Positions 1,539 through 49,192 of a DNA stretch of 64,000 nucleotides are shown piece by piece; the stretch's first letter is position 1; each line of letters starts with the position of its first letter. Origin of the DNA: Ignavibacteriota bacterium (lineage in GTDB: Bacteria; Bacteroidota; Ignavibacteria; UBA10030; SZUA-254); NCBI GenBank assembly GCA_016212665.1, contig JACREZ010000040.1, positions 24,178 through 88,177 on the forward strand, read 5' to 3'. Position numbers and translations under genes: made by a program. The notes beneath the pieces were generated by a model. That model searched no databases and was not told the origin of the DNA. It worked only from the letters and a program-made list of their open reading frames with translations.

Positions 1539-3847
1539 TTTCTTACGACCGCCACTTTTCCTTTCCCAACCGCGGTACCATCTTTGGAAAACGCGGCGAC
1601 AATGTACACGCCGCTCGCAACAACATTTCCTTCTTCATCCAACCCGTCCCAAAATCCTACTCTGCCACCGGGCGTGGATATTTCTTTTACCAAATTTCCG
1701 GAGACTGTAAATACTTTGAGCGTTGAACCTTCAACGAGTCCGTCAATTGTCAGTTCGCTCGATGATGGAAGTAAAAACGGATTGGGGAATATTTTTAACT
1801 CACCGAACGATGGGACAGGCGCAACGGCAGGAGTTGTAAGCGTGGCAAGCCCTGCCTCCGTTGAGAAATACAACGTTCCCGTATTGTTATCAATGGTCAA
1901 AGAAGAAACTCTGTCATCCGGTAATTTCCCTTGTGTTGATTCGACCGTGAAATGTTCCAACACCGTCGTTCCATCGGGAGACCAGAGATAGACGCCTTGT
2001 TCCGTTGCAACCCACTTTTGATTGAGCGGGTCAACCAAAATATCGTTCACACGTTTTCCGCTCAAAGGATGATACGGAAGAATTCGATACGGAACTGCCG
2101 GGTCAACAATAATATTGATTCCCTGATTCGTACCGACCCATAAACTTCCATCATTATCAATGGCGACCGCAGTAACTTCATTGTCGGTCAATCCGTCGCG
2201 GTCTTTCGTGATGATTCCCCACCCTGTTGATGCGTCAATGCGTCGCGGCAACCGTTTCGTTTCATCATAAAAAACAAGCCCGGGAGAACTGTTTTCCGTT
2301 ACGGAAAGAGAGGTGAACCATTTCGTTCCATGGTTATCCATAATGATATTGGTCAGTATCGGCAATTTCGAACCGGTCGGATAATTTGCATAGCGAAACG
2401 TCCGGGTGCCGGGAGAGTATATCGCGAGCAAATTTCTATCGGCGGCTGAGCGAATGTTAATCCAAGCGTCTCCGCTTCTATCAACAACAACTCCGGTAAC
2501 GACAACAAACGTCCGATTGTTATGTGCGTTCTCCGTGTAAAAAAGCCCGTTTGTTGAATTGAAAATATGTTGGACGGAATTGTTTGCATCGAGATGGACA
2601 ACTCCTTCGCCGAACATGCTCACCCATTTCGAGTTATCGCTTCCGATATCAATCTGATAGGCGTAGCGTGCGCCGTTGAGCGACGGCAATGTTTGCGGAG
2701 TGAATGTTCGCCATGTATCGCCATTAAAACTAATGAATCCTTCGCCGCTTGCCTGTCCCGTACCCGACCAAAAAACGCTTTTGTCATCAACAGCCATTCC
2801 GAAAAATTTATTGACAGGTGGACCGGGAGGAATGATCTTTTGCCAATCTATTCCAAGAGGTCTCAGTAATACCGAAGTGTTAATAAACAAACCGTTATTA
2901 GTTGAACCAAGGACATCCATTTTCCCAATTGATGTTAGTTTTGAAGGGAAGTCGGACGCCAATATTCTGAAGTCTCCACTGGTATAAATCCAATATTCAT
3001 TGTCGGTTAGAAAGAAAATAGAAGGAGTTCCGATTAATCCTAAGTCTGAGTTGGTCGAAAGAGCAGTAATATCTTTGCCGGATGTTTCTGAAAGAGTATT
3101 CCAAGAAACTCCGTTAAAATAAACAATACCAAGAGATGTTGCAGCAAAAAGTGTATCATTGGAACAAGTAATATCCCGAATGGCGATTGAAGGTAAACCG
3201 TTGTTCATCACCTGCCATGAACTTGGCTCGGAAGGATTCGGATTTGTCATCGGCGTCGAAGCAATTCCGCTTGACGTCCCTACCCAAAACCTGTTATTGA
3301 AAATTTCAAACGAGGTGACTTTGCCTGTGAGTTGTGGTGAAGTTCCGAATCGACGGTAGGAATCACCAAATTCATTTCGTGAAACGAAAAACACACTTAC
3401 GCCAATATCGGAAAGTATGAACAACGAATCACCTGAAACATAGAATGAATTGATTCGCTTTGTCGGTTCATCCGTCATCGAAGCAATTCCGGCAACATAA
3501 TTCCATTCACGGTGGCGCGGGTTAAAGGATTGAACAAATCCGTTCGAGGCGCCAATCCAGATATTTCCGTTTTCATCCGCAGTTATTGCGGTCAAATCAA
3601 TTGTGCGCAAACCTTCGGAGGTTGTAAACTGCTCAAAATTTTTATCGGTAAGATTGTAGGAGAAAAGCCCGCCGCTTGTTGCCGCCCAAACGACATTATC
3701 AACTACTACAACATCCCGCACTTCTTTTTTTGATGTGTAGTTTTTCCATTTGCCGATGTTTCCGCCGTATGAACATTCAACAAAAAATAGGATGAACAGA
3801 ACTGCGCTGAAAGGACGCAGATACGCGAGCAAGAAGTTATATTTCAT
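1535..3847 (-). CDS. Secreted beta-propeller (Reg_prop-repeat) protein with T9SS C-terminal sorting domain
   Basis: N-terminal signal peptide 'MKYNFLLAYLRPFSAVLFILFF'. Many 'WxATxxGLxxY' propeller repeats. C-terminus 'LKIFPNPFLLPSSSELTIDGL…GVYIVAAFSKDG' is a T9SS CTD. Confidence 0.75.
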   Translation of the reverse strand: MKYNFLLAYLRPFSAVLFILFFVECSYGGNIGKWKNYTSKKEVRDVVVVDNVVWAATSGGLFSYNLTDKNFEQFTTSEGLRTIDLTAITADENGNIWIGASNGFVQSFNPRHREWNYVAGIASMTDEPTKRINSFYVSGDSLFILSDIGVSVFFVSRNEFGDSYRRFGTSPQLTGKVTSFEIFNNRFWVGTSSGIASTPMTNPNPSEPSSWQVMNNGLPSIAIRDITCSNDTLFAATSLGIVYFNGVSWNTLSETSGKDITALSTNSDLGLIGTPSIFFLTDNEYWIYTSGDFRILASDFPSKLTSIGKMDVLGSTNNGLFINTSVLLRPLGIDWQKIIPPGPPVNKFFGMAVDDKSVFWSGTGQASGEGFISFNGDTWRTFTPQTLPSLNGARYAYQIDIGSDNSKWVSMFGEGVVHLDANNSVQHIFNSTNGLFYTENAHNNRTFVVVTGVVVDRSGDAWINIRSAADRNLLAIYSPGTRTFRYANYPTGSKLPILTNIIMDNHGTKWFTSLSVTENSSPGLVFYDETKRLPRRIDASTGWGIITKDRDGLTDNEVTAVAIDNDGSLWVGTNQGINIIVDPAVPYRILPYHPLSGKRVNDILVDPLNQKWVATEQGVYLWSPDGTTVLEHFTVESTQGKLPDDRVSSLTIDNNTGTLYFSTEAGLATLTTPAVAPVPSFGELKIFPNPFLLPSSSELTIDGLVEGSTLKVFTVSGNLVKEISTPGGRVGFWDGLDEEGNVVASGVYIVAAFSKDGTAVGKGKVAVVRK

Positions 3848-6287: not shown

Positions 6288-8720
6288 ATGACTATGCGAA
6301 ACTCACTTTTTCTCCTACTTCTCTTCATTCTTGTTGTCGGCACCTGTTATACAGGCGATAACCCGAAATCCATTCGTGCGGTACGAACACCTTCCGCTCC
6401 GAATATTGATGGAGTTCTCTCTGACGAAGTTTGGAAACTCACCGAACCCGTGACCGATTTTACCCAGCGCGACCCCTCCGAAGGACAACCGGCAACCGAG
6501 CAAACAGAAATTCGTGTTCTCTATGATGAGAACGCTCTCTATTTCGCATGTATGTTTTTTGATTCTGAGCCGGACAAAATCGTGTCACGGCTTACTCGCC
6601 GCGATAATGAAATAGAATATGACCGCGGTTCTATCCGGATTGATTCGTACCATGACCACCAAACATCGTTCGAGTTTACCTTCAATCCTGCCGGAGTGAA
6701 GATTGATATTCTTCAGTATGATGATGCCAATCGAGAAGATGCGTCGTGGGATGTTGTGTGGGACCTCGAAACAAAAATTCTTCCGAACGGTTGGTCTGCT
6801 GAAGTAAAGATTCCGTTTCATGTTCTTCGATATAGAACAGAAGAAGGTGATACATCTGAACAGGATTGGGGAATAAATTTTCTTCGGTACATCAGCAGAA
6901 AACAGGAATCAACATGGTGGGCATTTCATCCGAAGAGCCAGAGCGGATTTGTTTCCCGCTTCGGTCATCTCAAAGGATTATCTGACTTACCCGTTCCGCG
7001 ATACATCGAATTGCTACCATTCGTCGTCGCCAGACATTCATCTCAGCCAGCATCATCAATAAGAAAAACGAATAATAAATTTATCGGTGATGCCGGATTG
7101 GATTTACGGTATGGAATCACTTCCAACTTCACGCTCGACCTCACTATCAATCCCGACTTCGGACAGGTTGAAGCCGACCCGGCAGTTTTGAATCTCTCAA
7201 CATTTGAAACGTTCTATCCTGAGAAGCGCCCCTTCTTTATTGAAGGAACACAAATTATTCGCTTCTCAACGTTCGGCGGAGATTTTGGTCCCGGCATGTT
7301 TTATTCACGTCGCGTCGGGCGTGCAATTTCTCCAGATGAAGTCAACCTTTCCGATATTCAAACAATTGACAACATTCCATCAAACGTAACAATCTTAGGA
7401 GCGGCAAAAATTACAGGGAAAACAAACTCCGGTTTGTCGGTAGGAATCATGCAAGCTCTTACTCAGGAAGAATCCGCAACGCTCATTGATACTTCCGGAC
7501 ATACAACCGAACAAATTGTCGAACCGTTCGCCCATTACGGAATATTGAGAATGAAACAGGATGTTCTTGAAAATTCCAATGTTGGATTCATTCTCACTTC
7601 GGTTGAAAAAGAACAACGTTACCCCGCGTTCACAGGCGGATTAGACTGGAACTTGAAATTCGACAACAGCACATATCAACTCGATGGGTTTCTCTCTCTT
7701 ACTCACACCACAAACAGAGAGCTCGACCGCATCACCGGCTCCGCTGGACGAGTCACATACGCGAAAATCGGTGGAGAGCATTGGCTCTGGTCGGTTGACC
7801 TTGATTTCACAAGCAAGAAATTCAACATCAACGACATCGGATTTTTCCGTCGCCCAAATGATTGGGGAAGTGTTGCAACGCTGACCTACAAAGAAGAAAA
7901 ACCGGCGAAAGTAATTCGAAACTACAACGTCGGATTGTTTTTGCATGAGCGAAGAAATTTTGATGAAGTGAATTTGTTCAGAGAAGCAAACCTCGGCACG
8001 GAATTTCTTTTTACAAATTACTGGAATGTAGAATTAAGCGGCGGCATTGAAGCGGGGTTGTATGACGATAGGGAAACTCGCGGAAACGGTTTGTATCGTA
8101 AACCAATAACGTACAATGCATCCTTCGACATTTCAACAGACCATCGAAACGATGTTATCGTTGCCTTTGAACAAAAAGCAAGTTCCAACAGCAAATCTGC
8201 AACACGAGCAGAAACTGAACTCCGGTTGTTGCTCAAACCTGTTTCGTGGATGGAATTTGAATTTGAATCCGAGGCAAGTCGTACCCGTGGATTCGAAGCA
8301 TGGTTAACAAATCTACCCGGGACAGGCATAAGTATTTTCGGAGACCGGAACATTGATGAAATGAATCTGACGCTCAGAAGCACTATCACCTTCACACGCG
8401 ATTTGACATTACAACTCTATGGACAATATTTCAGCGCAAAAGGATACCATGAAAATTTTCGTGAACTTGTCGGCACCTCTGATTTTGTTCCCACACTCAT
8501 TGCTGTCAATCAGGATTTCGTTGCGCAGTCATGGCATTCCAATGTTGTGCTTCGTTGGGAATATTTACCCGGAAGTACGTTATTTTTTGTTTGGTCTCAA
8601 GCGAGGGAAGACGAATCGTCGGATTATCTTCAGACATTCAAAAATGATTTTTACGATGCATTTCGCATACCTTCCTCAAATGTACTCTTGCTCAAAGCAA
8701 GCTATTATTTAGGTTTGTGA
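6288..8720 (+). CDS. DUF5916 / CBM9-like-domain outer-membrane-associated protein
   Basis: Signal peptide, then 'APNIDGVLSDEVWK…IRVLYDENALYFACMFFDSEPDKI…RDNEIEYD…IDSYHDHQTSFEFTFNPAGVKID' matches the N-terminal CBM9-like region of the ~800-aa DUF5916 family. Confidence 0.65.
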   Translation: MTMRNSLFLLLLFILVVGTCYTGDNPKSIRAVRTPSAPNIDGVLSDEVWKLTEPVTDFTQRDPSEGQPATEQTEIRVLYDENALYFACMFFDSEPDKIVSRLTRRDNEIEYDRGSIRIDSYHDHQTSFEFTFNPAGVKIDILQYDDANREDASWDVVWDLETKILPNGWSAEVKIPFHVLRYRTEEGDTSEQDWGINFLRYISRKQESTWWAFHPKSQSGFVSRFGHLKGLSDLPVPRYIELLPFVVARHSSQPASSIRKTNNKFIGDAGLDLRYGITSNFTLDLTINPDFGQVEADPAVLNLSTFETFYPEKRPFFIEGTQIIRFSTFGGDFGPGMFYSRRVGRAISPDEVNLSDIQTIDNIPSNVTILGAAKITGKTNSGLSVGIMQALTQEESATLIDTSGHTTEQIVEPFAHYGILRMKQDVLENSNVGFILTSVEKEQRYPAFTGGLDWNLKFDNSTYQLDGFLSLTHTTNRELDRITGSAGRVTYAKIGGEHWLWSVDLDFTSKKFNINDIGFFRRPNDWGSVATLTYKEEKPAKVIRNYNVGLFLHERRNFDEVNLFREANLGTEFLFTNYWNVELSGGIEAGLYDDRETRGNGLYRKPITYNASFDISTDHRNDVIVAFEQKASSNSKSATRAETELRLLLKPVSWMEFEFESEASRTRGFEAWLTNLPGTGISIFGDRNIDEMNLTLRSTITFTRDLTLQLYGQYFSAKGYHENFRELVGTSDFVPTLIAVNQDFVAQSWHSNVVLRWEYLPGSTLFFVWSQAREDESSDYLQTFKNDFYDAFRIPSSNVLLLKASYYLGL

Positions 8721-22598: not shown

Positions 22599-22845
22599 AC
22601 CATTCTTTCATTGTTCGTGTTGAATATCGTATATCCTTTTGTTCAAATCAAATATTCTTGTCGGAAAGATACGTTTGCAAATGATTTTGTAGAAATATGA
22701 TTAGAACCTGAATAATCTCACGGAACTAAGAGATAGAAAATCCTTCGTAAGGTTACAATTATTGCTTTGCTTCTCTCCAAAAGTCTTAGTAACTTCTCAT
22801 CGTCAGACGATGATGAAAAATCAATTTCTATGAAGGTATATACGT

Positions 22846-23034
22846 ATGCTTGATACAAAAGAACAAGTAATCGAAATGATTAAAAAACTTCCCGATGATG
22901 TAACAGTTGACGATATCATGGGGGAATTATATTTCAAGATGCAAGTAGATTCGGGATTGAAAGAACTTGATGATGGGAAAGGAATTCAACACGAAGAAGT
23001 TGAGCGGCGGTTCTCTGCATGGCAAGCAAAATAA
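22846..23034 (+). CDS. Putative type II antitoxin (addiction-module component)
   Basis: 62-aa acidic protein immediately upstream of, and overlapping, a RelE/ParE toxin gene. Confidence 0.5.
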   Translation: MLDTKEQVIEMIKKLPDDVTVDDIMGELYFKMQVDSGLKELDDGKGIQHEEVERRFSAWQAK

Positions 23035-23312
23035 GGTGGTCGCCACGCGCCATCTCAAATCTTGAACATATCTACAAATATATAGCGACCGATTCTGAGT
23101 ATTATGCTTCATCGTTCATACGGCGATTGCTTTCAATCATCAGGGCAATACTAAGCTTCCCGTTTGCTGGACGCATCGTTCCTGAGTACAGCGATTATTT
23201 CCTCCGCGAAAAAATCTTCAAAAACTACCGAATAGTTTACCGAGTAAAAGAACCGCTCATCGAAATCGTTGCAATATGTCATTGCTCGAAACCATTGGAG
23301 GAAATACTGTAA
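23019..23312 (+). CDS. RelE/ParE-family toxin
   Basis: 'RWSPRAISNLEHIYKYIATDSEYYA…FREKIFKNYRIVYRV…IEIVAICH' is the ParE/RelE fold pattern. 16-bp overlap with the antitoxin gene. Confidence 0.7.
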   Translation: MASKIRWSPRAISNLEHIYKYIATDSEYYASSFIRRLLSIIRAILSFPFAGRIVPEYSDYFLREKIFKNYRIVYRVKEPLIEIVAICHCSKPLEEIL

Positions 23313-23452
23313 CTGTCTTTACGTATTTTTGTTACACTAAGAATTTTATAGACATGGGCTTGATTGGCAATACAATCTTTGAATGAATCTCTTTGTTCCT
23401 CACCCAAAGAATTGGTAACTTTGCATAGTATTTTTCAACTGGAACCCAGACA

Positions 23453-25137: not shown

Positions 25138-27699
25138 ATGATTCGACCTATCCATACACATACTGTCGCGCCTTCGCTTCCGAAGGAACTGCAATGTTTA
25201 CAATTCATTGCCTACAATCTTCTCTGGGTGTGGGACCATGACCTGATGGAATTATTCTTTCGCATGGACCCGGACCTGTGGGAACTCACCAACCACAACC
25301 CGGTGATGATGCTCGGCACAATGAGTCAGCAACGACTGAACATACTTTCCCACGACGACGCATTCATGTCGCAGGTGGAGCGATGCTGCGGCAAACTGAA
25401 ATCGTATCTTACAACATCTTCGAGTTGGTTTAAGAAAAGTCATCCCGACGCGGAGAAACTTCAAATTGCATATTTCTCTGCCGAGTTCGGCTTGACGGAA
25501 TGCCTGCAAAATTATTCCGGAGGATTGGGAGTGCTGGCAGGCGACCATCTCAAATCGGCAAGCGATTTGGGACTTCCGATTATCGGTATCGGGTTACTCT
25601 ATCAGCAAGGATATTTCCGACAATATTTAAACGCCGACGGCTGGCAACAGGAACGGTATCCTGAAAATGATTTCTACACGTTGCCGCTTCATCTCGAACG
25701 AAACGAAAACGGCAAACCCAAAACAATTTCCATCGAACTTCCCGGTCGTTCGGTCGCGGCGCAAATCTGGAAGGTACAGGTCGGGCGCAATCCGTTGTAC
25801 CTGCTCGACACGAACATCCCGCAGAATAATCCCGCCGACCAAAACATCACCGACCAACTCTACGGCGGCGACAAGGAAATGCGCATCAAACAGGAAATTC
25901 TTCTCGGCATCGGCGGGTACAGGGCGTTACACTTGCTCGGCTATTCTCCGACGGTGTATCATATCAACGAAGGACATTCCGCATTTCTCACGCTCGAACG
26001 AAGCCTTGATTTGATGAAGGCGCAGAACCTTTCATTCGCACAGGCGGCGGAAGCCACGATGGCGAGCATGGTCTTCACAACGCACACGCCCGTGCCTGCC
26101 GGCAACGATTACTTCCCGCCCGAGTTGATGAAAAAATATTTTTCGTTCATGGCAGAACAACTTGGGTTGGAGATTGATGAATTTCTCGCGCTCGGCAGAC
26201 AAAATCCCGAAGACGAAACGGAACATTTCTGCATGACGGTTCTTGCGCTTCGAATGTCAGATTTCAGTAACGGGGTGAGCAAGTTACATGGACAGGTTTC
26301 GCGCAAACTCTGGCAAAAAGTGTGGGAAGGAATTCCCGTGAACGAACTTCCGATTTCTTCGATTACCAACGGTGTTCACGCTCCTTCGTGGATCAGCCGC
26401 GACATTGCCGGTTTGTACGACAGATATTTGGGACCGACATGGCGTGAAGACCCGGGGCATCACGGAATGTGGAGTCGCGTTCTTCATATTCCCGATGAAG
26501 AACTCTGGCGAACGCATGAACGACGGCGTGAACGGCTCGTCGCGTTTGCGCGTCAACGATTGGGAAATCAATTAACAGCGCGCGGAGTACCGGCATCAGA
26601 AATTGCACAGGCGCGTGAGGTGCTGAATCCCGACGCTCTCACGATTGGTTTTGCACGACGGTTTGCAACGTACAAACGCGCTGCATTACTTCTCAGAAAT
26701 CCTGAACGACTCATCAAAATTCTTTCCAACAAAGAACGACCGGTACAAATTATCTTTGCGGGGAAAGCGCACCCGATGGATAATGAAGGCAAAGATATTA
26801 TCCGACAAATAGCTCACTTCGAGCGGAATCCTGAAGTGCGGCGGCGCATGGTGTTCATTGAAGATTATGATATGGTGGTAGCGCGGTATCTTGTGCAGGG
26901 AGTTGATATTTGGCTGAACACGCCGCGCCGTCCGCTGGAAGCGAGCGGCACAAGCGGAATGAAAGCAACGCTCAACGGCGCGCTCAATGTCAGCATCCTC
27001 GATGGTTGGTGGGATGAAGCGTATAACAGCGGCAACGGTTGGGCAATCGGGCAGGGAGAGGAATACGCGGAAGAAAAATATCAGGACGATGTTGAATCGA
27101 ATTTGCTCTATGATTTACTGGAAAAAGAAATTGTTCCGTTGTATTATTCGCGCGGCGAAGATGATTTACCTCGTCAATGGATTGCGCGGATGAAAACCGC
27201 GATGCGAACCATCGGACCGGAATTCAACAGCAACCGGATGGTGCGGCAATACACGGAAGAGATGTACCTCCACGCCGCAAAACGGGAAGCGAGTCTGAGC
27301 GCGAACAATTTCGAGCGTGCGAAATCATTCGCCGTGTGGCTCGAACACATTCAGGAACATTGGGAAGAACTGAAAATTGCCGGTGTCCATGTTGACGGCG
27401 ACGATGGAATGAAAGTCGGAGATACGCTTGCCGTGAAAGCGACGATAGAACTCGGTGCGTTGAACGCTTCCGATATTTCCGTTGAACTCTATTACGGACA
27501 ACTCAATGCAAAAGGAGAAATCGAAGAGCCGAAAATGATTGCGATGAAACCGGTCAGTGCATCCAAAGGAAAACCTGCAACATTCGAAGGCACAATCAGA
27601 TTGGATTCGAGCGGAAGAATGGGGCACACCGTACGCGTTCTCCCTCTTCATCCCGACTTACATAGTCCGTTTCGGTTAGGGTTGATTTTGTGGGCGTGA
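25138..27699 (+). CDS. glgP: Alpha-glucan phosphorylase (GT35, DUF3417-containing GlgP family)
   Basis: N-terminal '[20 protein letters not shown]' (DUF3417) and PLP site '[17 protein letters not shown]'; ~850 aa. Confidence 0.9.
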
Positions 27700-27731
27700 G
27701 TTGGAAGAAATAAAATTGTGGACCATTTTAA

Positions 27732-28367
27732 CTATTTAAATTCACTCCATGCATTTTTTTGCAACCACGTTGCAACTAACCAGACATAATCCCCAAAAAT
27801 CAAATTGCTATGGTCAAGATTTGAACGAGAACAAAGTTCTGGTAATTGACTCTTAAAAATTGAAAATCGTCGAAAGATGAAACTCCCGGATGGGATTAAA
27901 TTAGAATTACTATTCTTTGATTCAGTTTGAAGCCAATTCCTGATAAGATTAATTGCTTCGTGTTGGTTGTTTTGGTGCGATTGAATGTCTTGACCAGAAA
28001 TGTCTGAAATGAATTTTTGATAACGATACCGTTCTTTATCGAGGATGAGACAAATTTTTCGCTTTTGCTTTTTTGAGCCATATGCTTTCGCTCCAAGGAA
28101 AATCCCTAATTCTAAAGGCATATTGAATCGGGGTAATCTTGTCCTTGTATCAAGCTCAGTTCTTGAAATATCGTGAACTCCAAACTGACAGTTCTTGATA
28201 ATTGAATACAACTTTTCTATGCGAACCTGACTTCCATCATCGGATTCCCATGCACATCGTGCTATATAACCGCAGTCAAAAACAGCAAACACGATTGCTT
28301 CAAAGATATTACTATATTTTGAATCAAACGGACAATTAATAAAAACATTGAGAGAATACTTATCCAT
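27732..28367 (-). CDS. TIR-like domain protein (PF10137/Cap12-type 'predicted nucleotide-binding' TIR-like) with ~60-aa C-terminal extension
   Basis: 'NVFINCPFD…', 'QVRIEKLYSII…FGVHDISRTELDTRTRLPRFNMPLELGIFLGAKAYGSKKQKRKICLIL…ISDISG' fits the TIR-like consensus (VFIxHG…iEKf…RARQNVxFELGyFxGxLGR…vCxL…PSDxxG). It lies in a ~35% GC islet. Confidence 0.6.
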   Translation of the reverse strand: MDKYSLNVFINCPFDSKYSNIFEAIVFAVFDCGYIARCAWESDDGSQVRIEKLYSIIKNCQFGVHDISRTELDTRTRLPRFNMPLELGIFLGAKAYGSKKQKRKICLILDKERYRYQKFISDISGQDIQSHQNNQHEAINLIRNWLQTESKNSNSNLIPSGSFIFRRFSIFKSQLPELCSRSNLDHSNLIFGDYVWLVATWLQKNAWSEFK

Positions 28368-28374
28368 GAATTAA

Positions 28375-28674
28375 TCAAACAGCTATTAATAACTCCTGAT
28401 ACGATCGATGATTATCCAACAAGTATTTTCGTTGTTTACTGATAGCGGCCATTACATTTACTGCACGAATAATTGCTCGTTGATTTTTTGTCGGAACTGC
28501 AAGGGGTCTTTGAACTGTACGAACGCTCTGTGGTACGGGTCTTTGTATGGTTGTAATTCTTACTTGTGTCCCGTCCGAAAGCTTGATAATATTCCCCCTT
28601 TTACTAACTATAAATAGTTGTTCTCTCTTTTTTTTTCTTTTTGATGTTTTCTTTGATGTGCGATTATAACGCAT
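28375..28674 (-). CDS. Hypothetical small basic protein (possible partner of the TIR-like gene)
   Basis: 99 codons with a Lys-rich N-terminus 'TSKKTSKRKKKRE'. Stop lies 7 nt before the TIR-like ATG. The AT-rich context makes a chance ORF possible. Confidence 0.3.
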   Translation of the reverse strand: MRYNRTSKKTSKRKKKREQLFIVSKRGNIIKLSDGTQVRITTIQRPVPQSVRTVQRPLAVPTKNQRAIIRAVNVMAAISKQRKYLLDNHRSYQELLIAV

Positions 28675-29186
28675 AAAAATTCCTGAGTAATTATATCACA
28701 AATAATATACTTAATGGAATCTACGAAATCAAGTACTTCATCTAAAATATTTCCCGGATTGAAATAAGAAGTGTGTTATCCCTGAGCCGAAGCGCCGATG
28801 AGAAGATGAATCCTTGTTTCTTTTCCGATGGCATTAAATGCGGTGTCGGAAGTTTCCTTCCGAAACGAGAGCCACTCAAATTCATTCTGTTTTGACTGTA
28901 ATTCATTTCCCGCGAATATACATCATTCCTTTTTTCAATCAAACAAAAACTGTAGTGTTGCTATCAAAAAAATATGTAGTGACTCCCAACCAATCAGGAC
29001 GATTGGACACAACGAATGCAGAACAATTCCGTTTTCTATTTTCGTCCGAGTACGAATCGGACTCTCCAACGAAAAAATGTAGATGTCTCAAAAGCACGGT
29101 TTACGACAGCCCGACCTAAAAAACCCACAACCTGTGGGACAAATGATTTCTTCAAAAATGATTACATTCAGCAGAGAAAACCATAA

Positions 29187-29690
29187 ATGAAATTCCTTGC
29201 TATAGATTTTGAAACTGCCGACTACGGGCGCGATAGCGCGTGCGCTGTCGGGTTGGTGCGCGTGGAGAATAATATCATCGTGAAGAAAGAGACACACCTG
29301 ATTCGCCCGCCGAGAAGAAATATTCACTTCTCTTATCTTCATGGAATTACATGGGACGATGTGAAGCATCAACCAACATTCGGAGAGTTATGGGAAGAGA
29401 TTCATGCAATGATGCACGATGTAGATTTTCTCGTCGCTCATAATGCAAGTTTCGACAAAGGCGTGCTTTATGCGTGTTGTCAATCGGCAGGAATAACACC
29501 GCCGGATATCCCGTTTAAATGTACCGTGAAACTCTCGCGGCAATTATGGAAATTGAAACCGGCAAATCTTGCGGCCGTGTGCCGGCATTTCGGAATTCCG
29601 CTCAGGCACCACGATGCGGCTTCGGATACGGAAGCGTGTGCGAAAATTATGATTCGCGCGTTAGAGACGATGAAGCAATCTCCGGGTTGA
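29187..29690 (+). CDS. DEDDh 3'-5' exonuclease (DnaQ/PolIII-epsilon-like)
   Basis: Exo I 'LAIDFETAD', Exo II 'LVAHNASFDKGVL' and Exo III 'HHDAASDTEACAKI'. Confidence 0.8.
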   Translation: MKFLAIDFETADYGRDSACAVGLVRVENNIIVKKETHLIRPPRRNIHFSYLHGITWDDVKHQPTFGELWEEIHAMMHDVDFLVAHNASFDKGVLYACCQSAGITPPDIPFKCTVKLSRQLWKLKPANLAAVCRHFGIPLRHHDAASDTEACAKIMIRALETMKQSPG

Positions 29691-29935: not shown

Positions 29936-30325
29936 ATGGACGACAATTCATCACGCATACTCATGATCATCATTGCATTGCTGATAGGCATCAGCAGTGT
30001 TTCATTTCTTTTGTTCTTTCTTTTCAAAACATACAAACGCAACAACAGGGTGATTGACGAAGCGGAGGATATTCAGGGCGCGGTTCATTATCAATGCCCG
30101 AAGTGCAATCAGCACATGGAGCGGGGAATGGCGTTAGCCGGACGGGGTATCATTTACAAAGCCGACGACGGAAAACCCATCAGCTCGTTTTCAACCATCA
30201 ATCAGGTGTTGGAAAACACCTTGAGCATGTCGCTTCCTCCCGCGTTTAACCGGGCATGGCATTGCAACAACTGTAAATATTTGTTGCTGGACCATAGCGT
30301 GTTGGTGAAGAAGAAAAAGAAATAA
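29936..30325 (+). CDS. Hypothetical membrane-anchored protein with two CxxC pairs (Zn-ribbon-like)
   Basis: One N-terminal TM helix, then 'YQCPKCNQHM…WHCNNCKYLL', ending in a poly-Lys tail. Confidence 0.5.
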   Translation: MDDNSSRILMIIIALLIGISSVSFLLFFLFKTYKRNNRVIDEAEDIQGAVHYQCPKCNQHMERGMALAGRGIIYKADDGKPISSFSTINQVLENTLSMSLPPAFNRAWHCNNCKYLLLDHSVLVKKKKK

Positions 30326-47858: not shown

Positions 47859-48866
47859 TTATCCGTTCTCTGTATTCAAATAATTCCTTTTCGTTCGATA
47901 CATCAACAAATATCCACGTTTGCTTGGTTCATCCAAAAAGGAACGATTTGTCAGCGTTACAACCATGCGTTGTTCCTCCAAGAAAGGAATTAACAATTTT
48001 TCAATCCTGCCTTCTGTTACTCCAATACGTTTTCCGAATTCAATAAAATCCGCTTTGGATGGATGTCCGCTCTTACCTCGGTAACGTTTTGCATCGGCAA
48101 ACAATCCTTTACTCAAAGCAAAATCAGAATCGTCCACATGCAGTCTTGTATTGATTACATCATACGCAGGGCTGAGAAGGTAATCACCTTTCGAGGATTC
48201 GAGAAGCGAAATGTTTTTCAAGTGTGCATCTCCGTTCGAGAACAAATAGTTGAACACTACTAACAAGAAAAATTTTTCTATTTCCACGCGCCACGCAGGG
48301 ACGTATTGTTGTATCAGGAATCCAATCTCTTCGTAACTGAACTCATACTTGAAATTCGCGCCTGCATTATCTTTCGTTTTTCCAGCAAGCGAGGCAAAAT
48401 CTTCTTTCCCTCGTTTTCTTCCATTATCATCCACATCAAACCGCTTGGTGATGTAAGCGTGTGTGCCATCTTTGAAAAATATCATAGCATTTTCAGCGGT
48501 GGTTATTCCATACACTTGCTTTGCGATTTGCATGGTCAGATGTTCGTTTGCCGGGACCTGAGTAACATTCTTCAAATCTCTCGGAATCGGTTTCAGGATG
48601 TATGTTCCTTGTTCGCCTTCGTTCGTCAACCGCAACACATTTTTCTCTAAGATGAAACTCAACTTTTCCTGAACGCCTGAGATAGAGATGCGTTTACGAT
48701 TATCTCTGAACTGCTCAGCCACCTCTTCGTTTTGTTCCGGCGCGTCGTAGGGCAATACATGGCTTACTTTCTTCCCATGAAAGAGATTCCGCAAACAACC
48801 CGGACTGTAGGTAGAAAATCCTTCTGCCAATGTTCCGGGACAATATGGTATCTGCACTCCGCTCAT
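47859..48866 (-). CDS. hipT: HipT-type toxin kinase (HipA C-terminal kinase domain, 335 aa)
   Basis: Gly-rich loop with the 'SIS' motif ('KRISISGVQEKLSF') and catalytic 'FSNGDAHLKNISLL'. Length matches HipT of tripartite HipBST systems. Confidence 0.85.
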   Translation of the reverse strand: MSGVQIPYCPGTLAEGFSTYSPGCLRNLFHGKKVSHVLPYDAPEQNEEVAEQFRDNRKRISISGVQEKLSFILEKNVLRLTNEGEQGTYILKPIPRDLKNVTQVPANEHLTMQIAKQVYGITTAENAMIFFKDGTHAYITKRFDVDDNGRKRGKEDFASLAGKTKDNAGANFKYEFSYEEIGFLIQQYVPAWRVEIEKFFLLVVFNYLFSNGDAHLKNISLLESSKGDYLLSPAYDVINTRLHVDDSDFALSKGLFADAKRYRGKSGHPSKADFIEFGKRIGVTEGRIEKLLIPFLEEQRMVVTLTNRSFLDEPSKRGYLLMYRTKRNYLNTENG

Positions 48867-49192
48867 TGCATCGCAATCGGTTTTACCGTAACGGCTCCGA
48901 TTGTATCGTATTGTGCCGTTGCCATCAGCAGACCAAAATTATCTTCTTCATCAATTTTCAGATGTGTACATTGCAATTTCCTGTTCACCCCCTCGCTCAA
49001 CATGTTGAAGAAATACGGAAACAAAATTTCGCTCCGGTATTCCTGTTGAGTCTTTGGAAGCGTTACACTGATTGCCGGTTTGCTGTTGTCGTTGAAGTAG
49101 GCATCATCATAGCGGAAAACAAAATGATGCCGGTCGTCCTCCGCCAGAATACCTGCAAATATTCCGTTGCGATATACGTTTGCCTGTCTCAT
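48863..49192 (-). CDS. hipS: HipS (HipA N-terminal-domain homologue; antitoxin of HipBST systems)
   Basis: 109 aa, 'VYRNGIFAGIL…FRYDDAY…' is a HipA_N/couple_hipA fold. 4-bp ATGA overlap with hipT. Confidence 0.8.
   Translation of the reverse strand: MRQANVYRNGIFAGILAEDDRHHFVFRYDDAYFNDNSKPAISVTLPKTQQEYRSEILFPYFFNMLSEGVNRKLQCTHLKIDEEDNFGLLMATAQYDTIGAVTVKPIAMQ

Follow-up and report, generated by a model that had tools for sequence, protein, structure and literature searches.

The two genes of a short AT-rich islet in the window (the whole 64-kb stretch of DNA analysed here, 64,000 nucleotides) form a real, conserved and undescribed two-gene module, a candidate for a defence or toxin–antitoxin-like (TA-like) role, this function being what we infer. 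We lean towards viewing the islet as a horizontally acquired, self-contained cassette that consists of an enzyme with a TIR or nucleoside 2-deoxyribosyltransferase (NDT) fold and a tag-bearing partner, and that acts in abortive infection with TA-like logic. The initial annotation of this DNA had proposed a horizontally acquired two-gene candidate defence module matching no named system. That proposal finds support at the level of the protein family, in the fold, the pairing of the genes, their genomic contexts and the lack of a name in our searches. The main features are as follows.

27700–29186, unstranded: AT-rich islet lying between the end of glgP and the start of the exonuclease gene
27732–28367, minus strand: gene A (211 aa), member of a large unannotated TIR/NDT-fold family
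27975–28367, minus strand: N-terminal alpha/beta domain of A (about aa 1–131), predicted TIR / nucleoside 2-deoxyribosyltransferase-type fold
28104–28133, minus strand: codons for PRFNMPLELG (aa 79–88 of A), with Glu86, the candidate catalytic residue, where helix 3 begins
27753–27965, minus strand: C-terminal region of A, from about aa 135 to 205, conserved and predicted to be helical
28375–28674, minus strand: ORF B (99 aa, K+R 24%), 7 nt upstream of A, a canonical site of the partner gene
28447–28533, minus strand: ORF B segment aa 48–76, PQSVRTVQRPLAVPTKNQRAIIRAVNVMA, aligned to the partner motif

The AT-rich islet

Over positions 27700–29186 the GC content is 36.0%, compared with 48.4% and 48.8% in the two 5-kb flanks and 45.6% in the whole window, and it is the lowest among 626 windows of the same size within the 64 kb. 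The earlier estimate of about 35% against about 48% was close to the measured values. A comparison of codon usage, also suggested with that estimate, places the GC3 of A (0.30) and of B (0.26) below that of glgP (0.55), the exonuclease gene (0.50) and rodA (0.62). The islet was probably acquired horizontally. Both open reading frames reported before (211 and 99 aa, with a 7-nt spacing) were recovered, and every peptide string quoted for them is present. The naming of the flanking genes as glgP and an exonuclease gene is backed by Phosphorylase and DUF3417 matches for the former and an RNase_T match (1.3e-18) for the latter. These two genes of the window constitute a housekeeping context.

An empty insertion site was sought among 80 metagenomic loci carrying relatives of the flanking exonuclease (39–63% identity), none of which keeps the synteny with glgP, rodA or DUF6487. 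The direct and inverted repeats of 11–12 nt found at the islet edges agree in length and number with chance expectation.

The part of the islet upstream of ORF B contains the following elements.

28675–29186, unstranded: upstream non-coding DNA, with no recognisable element
28704–28732, minus strand: weak sigma-70-like promoter match TTGATT-17-TATATT (9/12 positions), about 30 nt upstream of ORF B
About 28864–28847: second hairpin, with a 7-bp stem and a GAAA loop
29118–29138, minus strand: terminator-like hairpin, stem CCCACAGGTTGTGGG (6 bp with 4 GC pairs), followed by the T-run TTTTTT (hairpin and T-run also given as 29138–29124)

This region had been described as structured DNA with two hairpins. 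Both hairpins exist, but the description as structured is not supported: the folding of the 512 nt has z = −0.25, with 40 of 100 shuffled sequences folding as well, and a search of the same 512 nt against Rfam matched no family. The terminator-like hairpin, at the far end of the islet, may serve to insulate the cassette; one such site was observed in the region versus 1.5 ± 1.2 in shuffles, which is within chance. Similarly, the sigma-70-like match is a possible promoter of a B–A operon, the four promoter-like sites of the region standing at chance level (4.9 ± 2.2 expected).

Gene A and its family

At least 7,979 homologues of A were found, with about 60% identity and 95–98% query coverage, and none of them carries a Pfam domain. 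Clustering at 50% identity leaves 3,411 representatives, and the family comprises thousands of sequence clusters, from at least 576 species in many phyla. It is scattered unevenly over the taxa, about 60% identity being maintained across phyla. The window protein scores E 2e-107 against the family HMM and has all 45 invariant family columns intact, being itself the reference sequence for those columns.

Conservation within the family is centered on a small group of residues. Among 155 diverse representatives, Glu86, Asn82, Gly88, Arg49 and Asp66 are conserved in all, and His65, Ser68, Asn11, Ser121 and Gly125 in at least 98%. The initial annotation had named the lack of a significant match to TIR-like/STIR families together with a non-conserved catalytic Glu as grounds for abandoning the TIR-like assignment; the candidate, Glu86, is invariant in 155 of 155 homologues. 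The invariant set of Glu, Asn, His and Asp looks catalytic.

The AlphaFold2 (AF2) model of A (pLDDT 81, pTM 0.83) predicts that the fold is a flavodoxin-like parallel beta-sheet, closest to TIR or NDT structures. In the model, a strand at residues 62–66 is followed by a helix (84–96) that starts at residue 84, with Glu86 at the helix start. When the model was compared with the PDB by Foldseek, nothing was obtained at E ≤ 1e-3, and the top of the list also includes CheY-like receivers and flavodoxins. A search of PDB sequences with the family profile of A gave no match even at E ≤ 10. We considered whether A is a relative of DNPH1 by sequence and rejected this, as hhalign against human DNPH1 (sequence verified against the PDB) gives a probability of 0.14; the same value rules out a sequence-based claim that Glu86 is equivalent to the ELG nucleophile. 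Because hhalign finds no DNPH1 sequence link, the assignment of Glu86 as the TIR/NDT catalytic Glu is based on its position in the predicted structure.

The assignment of A to the TIR-like PF10137/Cap12 type stands at the level of the superfamily, in that the predicted fold is of the TIR/NDT type. Membership in PF10137 itself is not supported. The profile matches aa 41–126 of A with 17.9 bits (E 0.0031), below its gathering threshold of 24.7 bits, and it matches 15 of 44 relatives of A with a best E of 0.0031, none of them listed above the cut-off. The C-terminal extension of about 60 aa was also reinterpreted. The sequence is present, but it is not an add-on, since it is conserved throughout the family and the homologues cover 95–98% of the query. 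It is modeled as three helices (135–150, 161–181 and 191–204; pLDDT about 90 or more), and its residues Arg143, Trp145, Pro176, Asp193 and Trp201 are 77–86% conserved among the 155 representatives. In some relatives, canonical TIR_2/SEFIR domains are fused to the N-terminus of A.

In 97% of 73 loci, A has a lower GC content than the flanking DNA (p = 3e-13), and the same is true of the window. Homologues of A occur beside genes for SIR2, Eco57I-type restriction–modification, AbiJ/Abi_C, NACHT, OLD-like ATPase and DprA-like proteins and beside transposases, as seen in a qualitative survey of about 8 neighborhoods. These contexts are variable and rich in defence genes and mobile elements, and some are plainly housekeeping. 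The family is scarce on viral contigs (11 loci), which fits a host defence function without proving it.

Neither A, B nor the family has a name in the searches of Pfam, NCBIfam, PADLOC, PHROGs and PDB sequences, and the family is missing from PADLOC 2.0. Likewise, it is undescribed in the literature that we consulted on PF10137, on TIR-like proteins with toxin–antitoxin systems or NDT, on DUF2188, on N-terminal extensions of CD-NTases and on small basic TIR partners.

The partner and possible modes of action

The second element of the module is a basic motif of about 25 aa (consensus RTIKxPxKxGTVSRxxIRxAVxxV), which we refer to as the tag. At 81 of 102 A loci, an adjacent ORF on the same strand carries the motif at 10 bits or more (57 upstream, 24 downstream), and the gaps between A and the partner range from −14 to +60 nt. 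Among distant control ORFs, 3 of 8,646 reach the same score, two of which are obvious extra copies. When the search was run in reverse, beginning with the partner, each of 3 cases led back to A or its remnant: in two, A lay 3 nt downstream, and in the third a decayed A was present. In one lineage, A is pseudogenised and the partner is retained. The question raised earlier, whether the pair co-occurs in other genomes, is answered positively in both directions for A and tag-bearing partners at the level of the family. It had also been envisaged that homologues of A might always be solitary and in housekeeping contexts. They are not always solitary, given the 81 of 102 loci with a partner, and their contexts are variable; the housekeeping part of that expectation applies to some of them.

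At about 60% of the loci the partner is a bare basic peptide with no enzymatic or effector domain. The tag is also borne by larger heads, namely a CBASS-type CD-NTase, a TPR array, DUF2188 and an S11-like domain. The fusion to a CD-NTase (PADLOC cyclase, E ~1e-125) forms a two-gene operon with A. A CD-NTase adjoins A only in three Poribacteria loci (L033, L047 and L049), and there the partner tag sits on the cyclase itself. The absence of a nearby cyclase, emphasized in the initial annotation, is therefore correct for the window and does not extend to these other genomes, in which the partner is the CD-NTase. DUF2188 is a recurrent partner of the family with or without the tag (L045, L026, L067, L093 and P0347), and the DUF2188 fusion matches PADLOC PDC-S16. 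The AF2 model of the partner has an extended segment and a helix and no globular fold; the tag itself is predicted to form an extended stretch leading into an amphipathic helix. No known antitoxin domain was detected in the partner among the family libraries searched, and the motif is absent from the interior of long A-family fusion proteins.

ORF B probably represents a divergent form of this partner. We regard it as the likely cognate partner of A because of its position, its composition (A-like GC3) and its weak, order-specific similarity to partners. In the phmmer list of ORF B, partner-slot ORFs occupy 12 of the top 30 places versus 4.5 ± 2.1 for shuffled versions, a count that none of the 200 shuffles attains, and the alignments to partner ORFs cover aa 41–82 of B. 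Aligned by hhalign to the partner alignment A3, ORF B places aa 48–76 on the motif columns (31% identity over 29 columns, E 0.09). The canonical motif HMM gives ORF B 1.0 bit, where at least 10 bits are needed, a score reached by 16% of its own shuffles and by 5–8% of control ORFs. A by-eye alignment of ORF B to the canonical motif was not accepted, the HMM score being only 1.0 bit. A six-frame scan of 27600–29300 for a hidden or decayed canonical partner found no motif above 1.3 bits. The earlier suggestion that the 99-aa ORF is a partner of A agrees with the slot, the GC3 and the weak similarity, but not with the motif model or with the search for homologues, none of which was found among 5.8 billion proteins.

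It is possible, though rather doubtful, that A is solitary here and that ORF B is a chance ORF or a wrecked former partner, in which case this copy may be inactive or differently regulated. ORF B has neither a homologue among those 5.8 billion proteins nor a family-library match, its 1.0-bit motif score is matched by shuffles and controls at the rates given above, and 17 of the 102 loci lack a strong motif. Furthermore, ORFs of 99 codons can still arise in AT-rich DNA, even with few stop-free frames. However, ORF B lies exactly at the partner position, on the same strand, with a 7-nt gap, and is small and basic. At most of the motif-less loci, too, a small basic ORF with a degenerate motif occupies the partner slot. 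Additionally, partner-slot ORFs are more frequent among the best matches of ORF B than in any of the 200 shuffles, these matches are aligned on the motif, and hhalign independently picked the same segment.

For the cassette reading, which we prefer, we propose the following mechanism. The family protein A (about 205 aa) consists of an N-terminal domain with the TIR/NDT fold and a conserved helical "stalk" made up of its C-terminal third, and in the window ORF B would fill the partner slot as a strongly diverged version. The tag would dock on A, and would either keep the enzyme inactive or couple it to the partner head or to nucleic acid. Phage infection or stress would disturb the complex between A and its partner, and A would then cut an N-glycosidic bond in NAD+ or in a nucleotide, leading to growth arrest. 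The outcome would be abortive infection with toxin–antitoxin-like logic. The fold class, the conserved residues, the neighbourhood of the two genes seen from either side, the foreign base composition and the lack of an entry in the annotation libraries searched are results of this analysis; binding of the tag to A, enzymatic activity and its substrate, toxicity and a part in phage defence are inferences.

A broader and more tentative idea, which we think rather unlikely, is that the motif of about 25 aa works as a portable docking tag, by which a single conserved TIR/NDT-fold enzyme would be linked in trans to a range of exchangeable heads, a hitherto unrecognised plug-and-play architecture of bacterial immunity. 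The heads may then comprise the bare nucleic-acid-binding tail, DUF2188, the S11-like domain, the TPR sensor and the CBASS cyclase. A might also switch the partner on or off through a covalent modification of the tag, such as ADP-ribosylation of the invariant Arg. If this idea holds, the copy in the window would belong to the docking-tag system as a rapidly evolving member.

It is improbable that A is the signalling or sensing part and not the killer, whether as a ThsB-like TIR that makes a signal or as a SLOG/LOG-like protein that binds one. On this view, a SLOG/LOG-like A would bind a signal from the tagged CD-NTase or from the fused canonical TIR, and the output would lie in the C-terminal helices of A or in another protein. 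Signal generators do occur among the partners and fusions (the CD-NTase and the N-terminal canonical TIR_2/SEFIR), and DUF2188 is listed as a putative Thoeris effector beside canonical TIRs (Yirmiya et al. 2025 preprint). Conversely, the bare basic peptides at about 60% of loci are unable either to produce a signal or to act on one, the catalytic appearance of the invariant Glu, Asn, His and Asp speaks for an enzyme, and neither the window nor any of the sampled loci has a known Thoeris or CBASS effector adjacent to A. Finally, it is very unlikely that A is an ordinary nucleotide-salvage or nucleotide-modification enzyme (NDT, DNPH1 or LOG-like) with no role in conflict and with merely incidental small ORFs, since the family is unevenly distributed while keeping about 60% identity between phyla, the gene consistently has less GC than the host DNA, its genomic context varies, its close linkage is to a tag that CBASS cyclases also carry, it is pseudogenised in one lineage, and hhalign shows no DNPH1 link.

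Significance and comparison with known systems

The DUF4062 proteins illustrate that new TIR-like families are still emerging and include proven active NADases. The A family is large, strongly conserved and unannotated in every library searched. A short tag shared by a neighboring gene, CBASS cyclases and TPR sensors offers a testable handle on how a sensorless TIR-like enzyme is controlled. If the pair defends against phage, it would represent a new and widespread system concentrated in poorly studied environmental phyla. If true, it could also explain some two-gene cyclase operons that work without a classical receptor domain.

The TIR domains of CAP12 and Pycsar (PF10137), which are the NADase effectors of CBASS and Pycsar, are the best match to A at the sequence level, although below threshold. 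The alpha/beta fold and, going by the predicted structure of A, a conserved Glu after strand 3 are common to both, and in the three Poribacteria loci A occupies the effector position of CBASS, in a two-gene operon with a CD-NTase. Unlike these effectors, A has no fused STING, SAVED or cNMP-binding sensor and no extra Pfam domain. A conserved helical C-terminus of its own and a tag partner encoded in trans set its family apart from PF10137 proteins. Moreover, unlike CBASS and Pycsar, most A loci lack a cyclase, including the window, where a CD-NTase is absent from the islet and the neighbors are glgP and the RNase_T exonuclease.

The DUF4062 systems Swarozyc and Evangelion contain a recently recognised TIR-like domain that is distant from canonical TIR and NDT and has a conserved catalytic Glu (bioRxiv 10.64898/2026.05.01.722283, 10.64898/2026.06.25.731849). 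They resemble A in that a TIR-like head leads into helical stalks, all within about 205 residues, and in their association with defence islands and mobile elements. DUF4062 was not matched in the window protein (Pfam, E ≤ 1) and is absent from the six families listed for 44 relatives (E ≤ 0.1). Each DUF4062 system is encoded by one gene, to which the auxiliary sensor region is fused, whereas the variable part of the A system is a separate neighboring gene with a short tag. The N-glycosidases of the NDT superfamily (NDT, DNPH1/Rcl and the CMP hydrolases MilB/BcmB) are comparable in the predicted fold, but A has no Pfam NDT match, its hhalign probability with DNPH1 is 0.14 and, unlike these enzymes, it behaves genomically as a mobile accessory gene.

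The Thoeris configuration of a TIR with DUF2188 (putative, Yirmiya et al. 2025 preprint) and PDC-S16 share with the A family the recurrent use of DUF2188. The TIRs paired with DUF2188 in that preprint are canonical, and the NCPFD and PRFNMP motifs of A are absent from the accessible part of its supplementary tables. PADLOC assigns neither A nor B to Thoeris, and the islet contains no ThsA SIR2-SLOG, Macro or other Thoeris effector.

In organization, the module resembles type II TA modules and two-component abortive-infection systems of the retron or Thoeris type, being a compact, mobile two-gene operon with a small, basic and probably partly disordered partner. The genes are adjacent and co-oriented in 81 of 102 A loci and in the window, and the putative toxin gene A has decayed in one lineage that kept the partner. 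Unlike classical TA systems, the partner has no recognisable DNA-binding antitoxin fold, the gene order is variable (partner upstream in 57 loci and downstream in 24), and the tag has also been grafted onto large sensor and signalling proteins.

The islet and its composition

The source contig measures 163.5 kb and belongs to an Ignavibacteriae MAG. The islet at 27700–29186 holds two ORFs, whose proteins carry the locus tags HY960_14380 and HY960_14385 in their database names:

25138–27699, plus strand: glgP (matches to Phosphorylase and DUF3417), whose stop borders the islet
27732–28367, minus strand: ORF A, 211 aa
28375–28674, minus strand: ORF B, 99 aa, K+R 24%, ending 7 nt before the start of ORF A
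29187–29690, plus strand: RNase_T/DEDDh exonuclease gene, whose start borders the islet

The GC content of the islet, 36.0% compared with 48.4% and 48.8% in the 5-kb flanks, is the lowest among 626 same-size windows over the 64 kb. GC3 is 0.30 in ORF A and 0.26 in ORF B, versus 0.50–0.62 in the neighboring genes. The GC, GC3, and ORF data confirm the AT-rich, two-ORF islet proposed in the initial annotation. The description of the ~510 nt of noncoding DNA upstream of ORF B as structured found no support: shuffled versions of these 512 nt fold just as well (z = −0.25), an Rfam search of the region gave no match, and promoter-like and terminator-like sites are about as frequent as chance predicts, with a single terminator-like hairpin at 29138–29124.

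Elsewhere in the window, the following genes were noted:

23019–23312, plus strand: ParE toxin, 97 aa (PF05016, E 1.5e-15), within a second low-GC patch (~22600–23350, GC 0.32–0.38); its antitoxin gene presumably lies just upstream
29936–30325, plus strand: 129-aa protein with a DUF6487 zinc-ribbon-like domain (E 2e-7) and, by eye, an N-terminal hydrophobic segment, between the exonuclease gene and rodA
47859–48866, minus strand: HipA_C (E 1e-37)
48863–49192, minus strand: Couple_hipA (E 5.6e-20)

The last two constitute a HipA-type kinase toxin split in two ORFs (47859–49192), beside another low-GC stretch at ~49–51 kb.

Family A: fold, conservation, and spread

The assignment of protein A as TIR-like stands for the fold class and not for membership in PF10137. 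The PF10137 (CAP12/Pycsar TIR) model scores A at E 0.0031 and 17.9 bits, below its 24.7 cutoff, and the PADLOC TIR effector model gives a sub-threshold hint (E 0.003); NCBIfam and PHROGs searches with A returned nothing useful. In the AF2 model (pLDDT 81, pTM 0.83), residues 1 to ~131 form a five-strand α/β domain, and three long helices come after it. Foldseek supports this fold class, with CheY-like receivers mixed in and no match at E ≤ 1e-3. Profile searches of PDB sequences with the family gave no match, and hhalign found no link to verified human DNPH1. By fold class A belongs with the TIR/NDT proteins, among which it forms a new family, and it cannot be shown to belong to PF10137 or DUF4062.

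Among 155 diverse representatives, Glu86, Asn82, Gly88, Arg49, and Asp66 are 100% conserved, and His65, Ser68, Asn11, Ser121, and Gly125 at least 98%. Glu86, within PRFNMPLELG, lies where the helix that follows strand 3 begins, the position occupied by the catalytic Glu in TIR and NDT enzymes. The model suggests that the two glutamates are equivalent, and A is very probably an enzyme. The C-terminal third, previously regarded as an extension, is conserved across the whole family and is not an add-on.

At least 7,979 homologues from many phyla (202–228 aa, coverage 95–98%, ~60% identity) were found, all unnamed and none with a Pfam domain. An exhaustive profile search gave 3,411 representatives (50% identity level), of which 817 reach E ≤ 1e-30; when one genome was scanned for each species, the family turned up in at least 576 species. 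Hosts include Poribacteria, Acidobacteriota, Thermoanaerobaculia, Planctomycetota, Gemmatimonadota, Verrucomicrobiota, cyanobacteria, Geomonas, and Microbulbifer; 2.9 million viral contigs contained only 11 loci. The sole archaeal-labeled copy, with a very basic upstream ORF, is on a 2.7-kb contig of a Promethearchaeota MAG (L079), and on so short a contig the label may reflect binning contamination. Six proteins (P0140, P0182, P0215, P0216, P0247, P0264) have an N-terminal canonical TIR_2/SEFIR domain fused to A via a basic linker, and another six (P0125, P0146, P0151, P0170, P0189, P0212) have in common a C-terminal extension of ~100 aa to which no Pfam family matches. The basic partner motif described below is absent from both groups.

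In 97% of 73 nonredundant loci, A has a lower GC content than its flanks (by a mean of 9.1 points, p = 3e-13), which agrees with the horizontal acquisition suggested for the islet. The sampled neighborhoods contained SIR2_2 with vWA and adenosine deaminase genes, an Eco57I-type RM enzyme with AbiJ/Abi_C and DUF433, a NACHT NTPase, an OLD-like AAA_15/21 ATPase with a DprA-like gene, a contractile-injection locus, and several transposases. Housekeeping genes flank some copies, that of the window among them. No genes beyond the pair of A and its partner were conserved in these neighborhoods, and relatives of the flanking exonuclease (39–63% identity) keep no synteny with the window. The family keeps ~60% identity across phyla, with a patchy distribution and occasional decay, and so behaves as a mobile, self-contained accessory cassette, as defence and TA modules do.

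The basic tag and the place of ORF B

The small basic ORFs that adjoin A in unrelated contexts are related to one another. Iterative searches across all ORFs of the collected loci defined a motif of ~25–30 aa, R-[TI]-[IV]-K-x-P-x-K-x-G-[TSK]-[VL]-[ST]-R-x-x-[IV]-[RK]-x-A-V-x-x-V, here called the tag. At a threshold of 10 bits, it is present in a same-strand ORF directly adjoining A at 81 of 102 loci, upstream at 57 (spacing about −14 to +80 nt) and downstream at 24 (1–41 nt). Only 3 of 8,646 control ORFs more than 1.5 kb from A reach this threshold, two being obvious extra motif copies. At most of the remaining loci, the upstream slot is filled by a small, basic ORF with a degenerate motif (for example, NPSRQRAIQKAVDELAALRK at L082) or a DUF2188-like domain.

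The linkage was also examined in reverse. A partner-protein profile retrieved 78 small hypothetical proteins, and three, on long contigs new to the analysis, were inspected. Two are followed, after 3 nt, by an intact A (E 1e-92 and 1e-97). At the third (L108, ~3241–3520; also L109), the partner is intact and A is reduced to codons 1–21, an inverted internal fragment, and codons 175–205 (about the last 30), in the synteny of L107, where the pair is intact. The two-gene arrangement recurs in other genomes, and the pair is real at the family level. Extra tag-bearing small ORFs away from A were seen at L042 (6609–8950, three in a row, downstream), L028 (1752–1895), and L104 (~739–930).

The motif is modular. 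It occurs as a 44–90-aa Lys/Arg/Ser/Ala-rich protein, or joined to a 14-repeat TPR protein, to DUF2188 in either order (a match to PADLOC candidate PDC-S16), to uncharacterised 418–601-aa proteins, or to a divergent ribosomal-S11-like domain. The last form (Pfam E 1.5e-27; L023 5488–5958, Planctomycetota MAG) is outside any ribosomal operon, and the S11-like part is an unusual RNA-binding "head" to find joined to the tag. The motif also forms a ~45-aa N-terminal extension on a CBASS-type CD-NTase (PADLOC cyclase, E ~1e-125); in three genomes of Poribacteria (L033, L047, L049; genes ~6624–7932), the tagged cyclase gene and A make up a two-gene operon, and no classical effector is present at these operons. 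An AF2 model of one canonical partner (pLDDT 76, pTM 0.40) shows an extended segment, then an amphipathic helix, and lacks a globular fold, as would fit a peptide that folds on binding.

ORF B occupies the partner slot, which is conserved across family neighborhoods, and its own sequence is not: no homologue was found among 5.8 billion proteins. By the refuting condition of the initial annotation, a nonconserved 99-aa ORF, this would count against a two-gene system, but the loci of A homologues point the other way. The motif model gives it 1.0 bit, a score equaled by 16% of shuffles and 5–8% of control ORFs. Accordingly, A could be solitary here, with ORF B nonfunctional. In favor of partnership, ORF B is small, basic, in the canonical slot, and as unusual in GC3 as A. 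Used as a query against 7,267 nonidentical locus ORFs, it ranks slot ORFs as 6 of the top 20 (p = 1e-7) and 15 of the top 100 (p = 1e-12), with residues 41–82 aligned on the partner motif. In a composition-matched database, slot ORFs were 12 of the top 30 and 17 of the top 50 for the real sequence, versus 4.5 ± 2.1 and 7.5 ± 2.8 for 200 shuffles, none of which equaled it, and 3 and 4 for the reversed sequence. Finally, hhalign against an independently built partner alignment places residues 48–76 on the motif columns (31% identity, E 0.09). ORF B is probably a strongly diverged partner of A, and this divergence makes the window copy atypical in its family.

Proposed mechanism and relation to known systems

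In the best-supported reading, A would be an N-glycosidase effector of the TIR/NDT fold, with NAD+ or a nucleotide as its substrate, controlled in trans by the tag-docked protein. Infection or stress would disturb the complex, and the freed A would cause growth arrest. The analysis establishes the fold class, the invariant polar residues, the linkage of the two genes in both directions, the modularity of the tag, and the foreign base composition; docking, enzymatic activity, toxicity, and a role in defence are inferred. Alternatively, A may make or receive a signal rather than act as the effector; its cyclase and TIR partners point that way, but bare peptides make up most of the partners. A plain salvage enzyme is unlikely, given the distribution of the family. 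The pair is a candidate immune module that is unannotated and very widespread, occurs mostly in environmental phyla that have been little studied, and has an unusual portable tag; simple genetics and biochemistry could test it directly.

The earlier proposal of a candidate two-gene defence module outside the named systems holds at the family level: neither A nor the tag is covered by a model in Pfam, NCBIfam, PADLOC 2.0, or PHROGs, and the literature searched contained no description of either. Among the closest systems are the PF10137 effectors of CBASS and Pycsar, although A scores below threshold and has no sensor domain. The DUF4062 TIR-like NADases Swarozyc and Evangelion (bioRxiv 10.64898/2026.05.01.722283, 10.64898/2026.06.25.731849) have a similar head-plus-stalk layout but no sequence match to A, and are single genes rather than a pair. 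The "TIR + DUF2188" configuration of Yirmiya et al. (2025 preprint) is a candidate system with canonical TIRs, unlike A, and the supplementary tables examined contain no family A motifs. NDT-family N-glycosidases resemble A in fold only, and type II TA modules resemble the pair in logic only. The pair is a variant on a known theme, a putative TIR-like effector with a regulatory partner.
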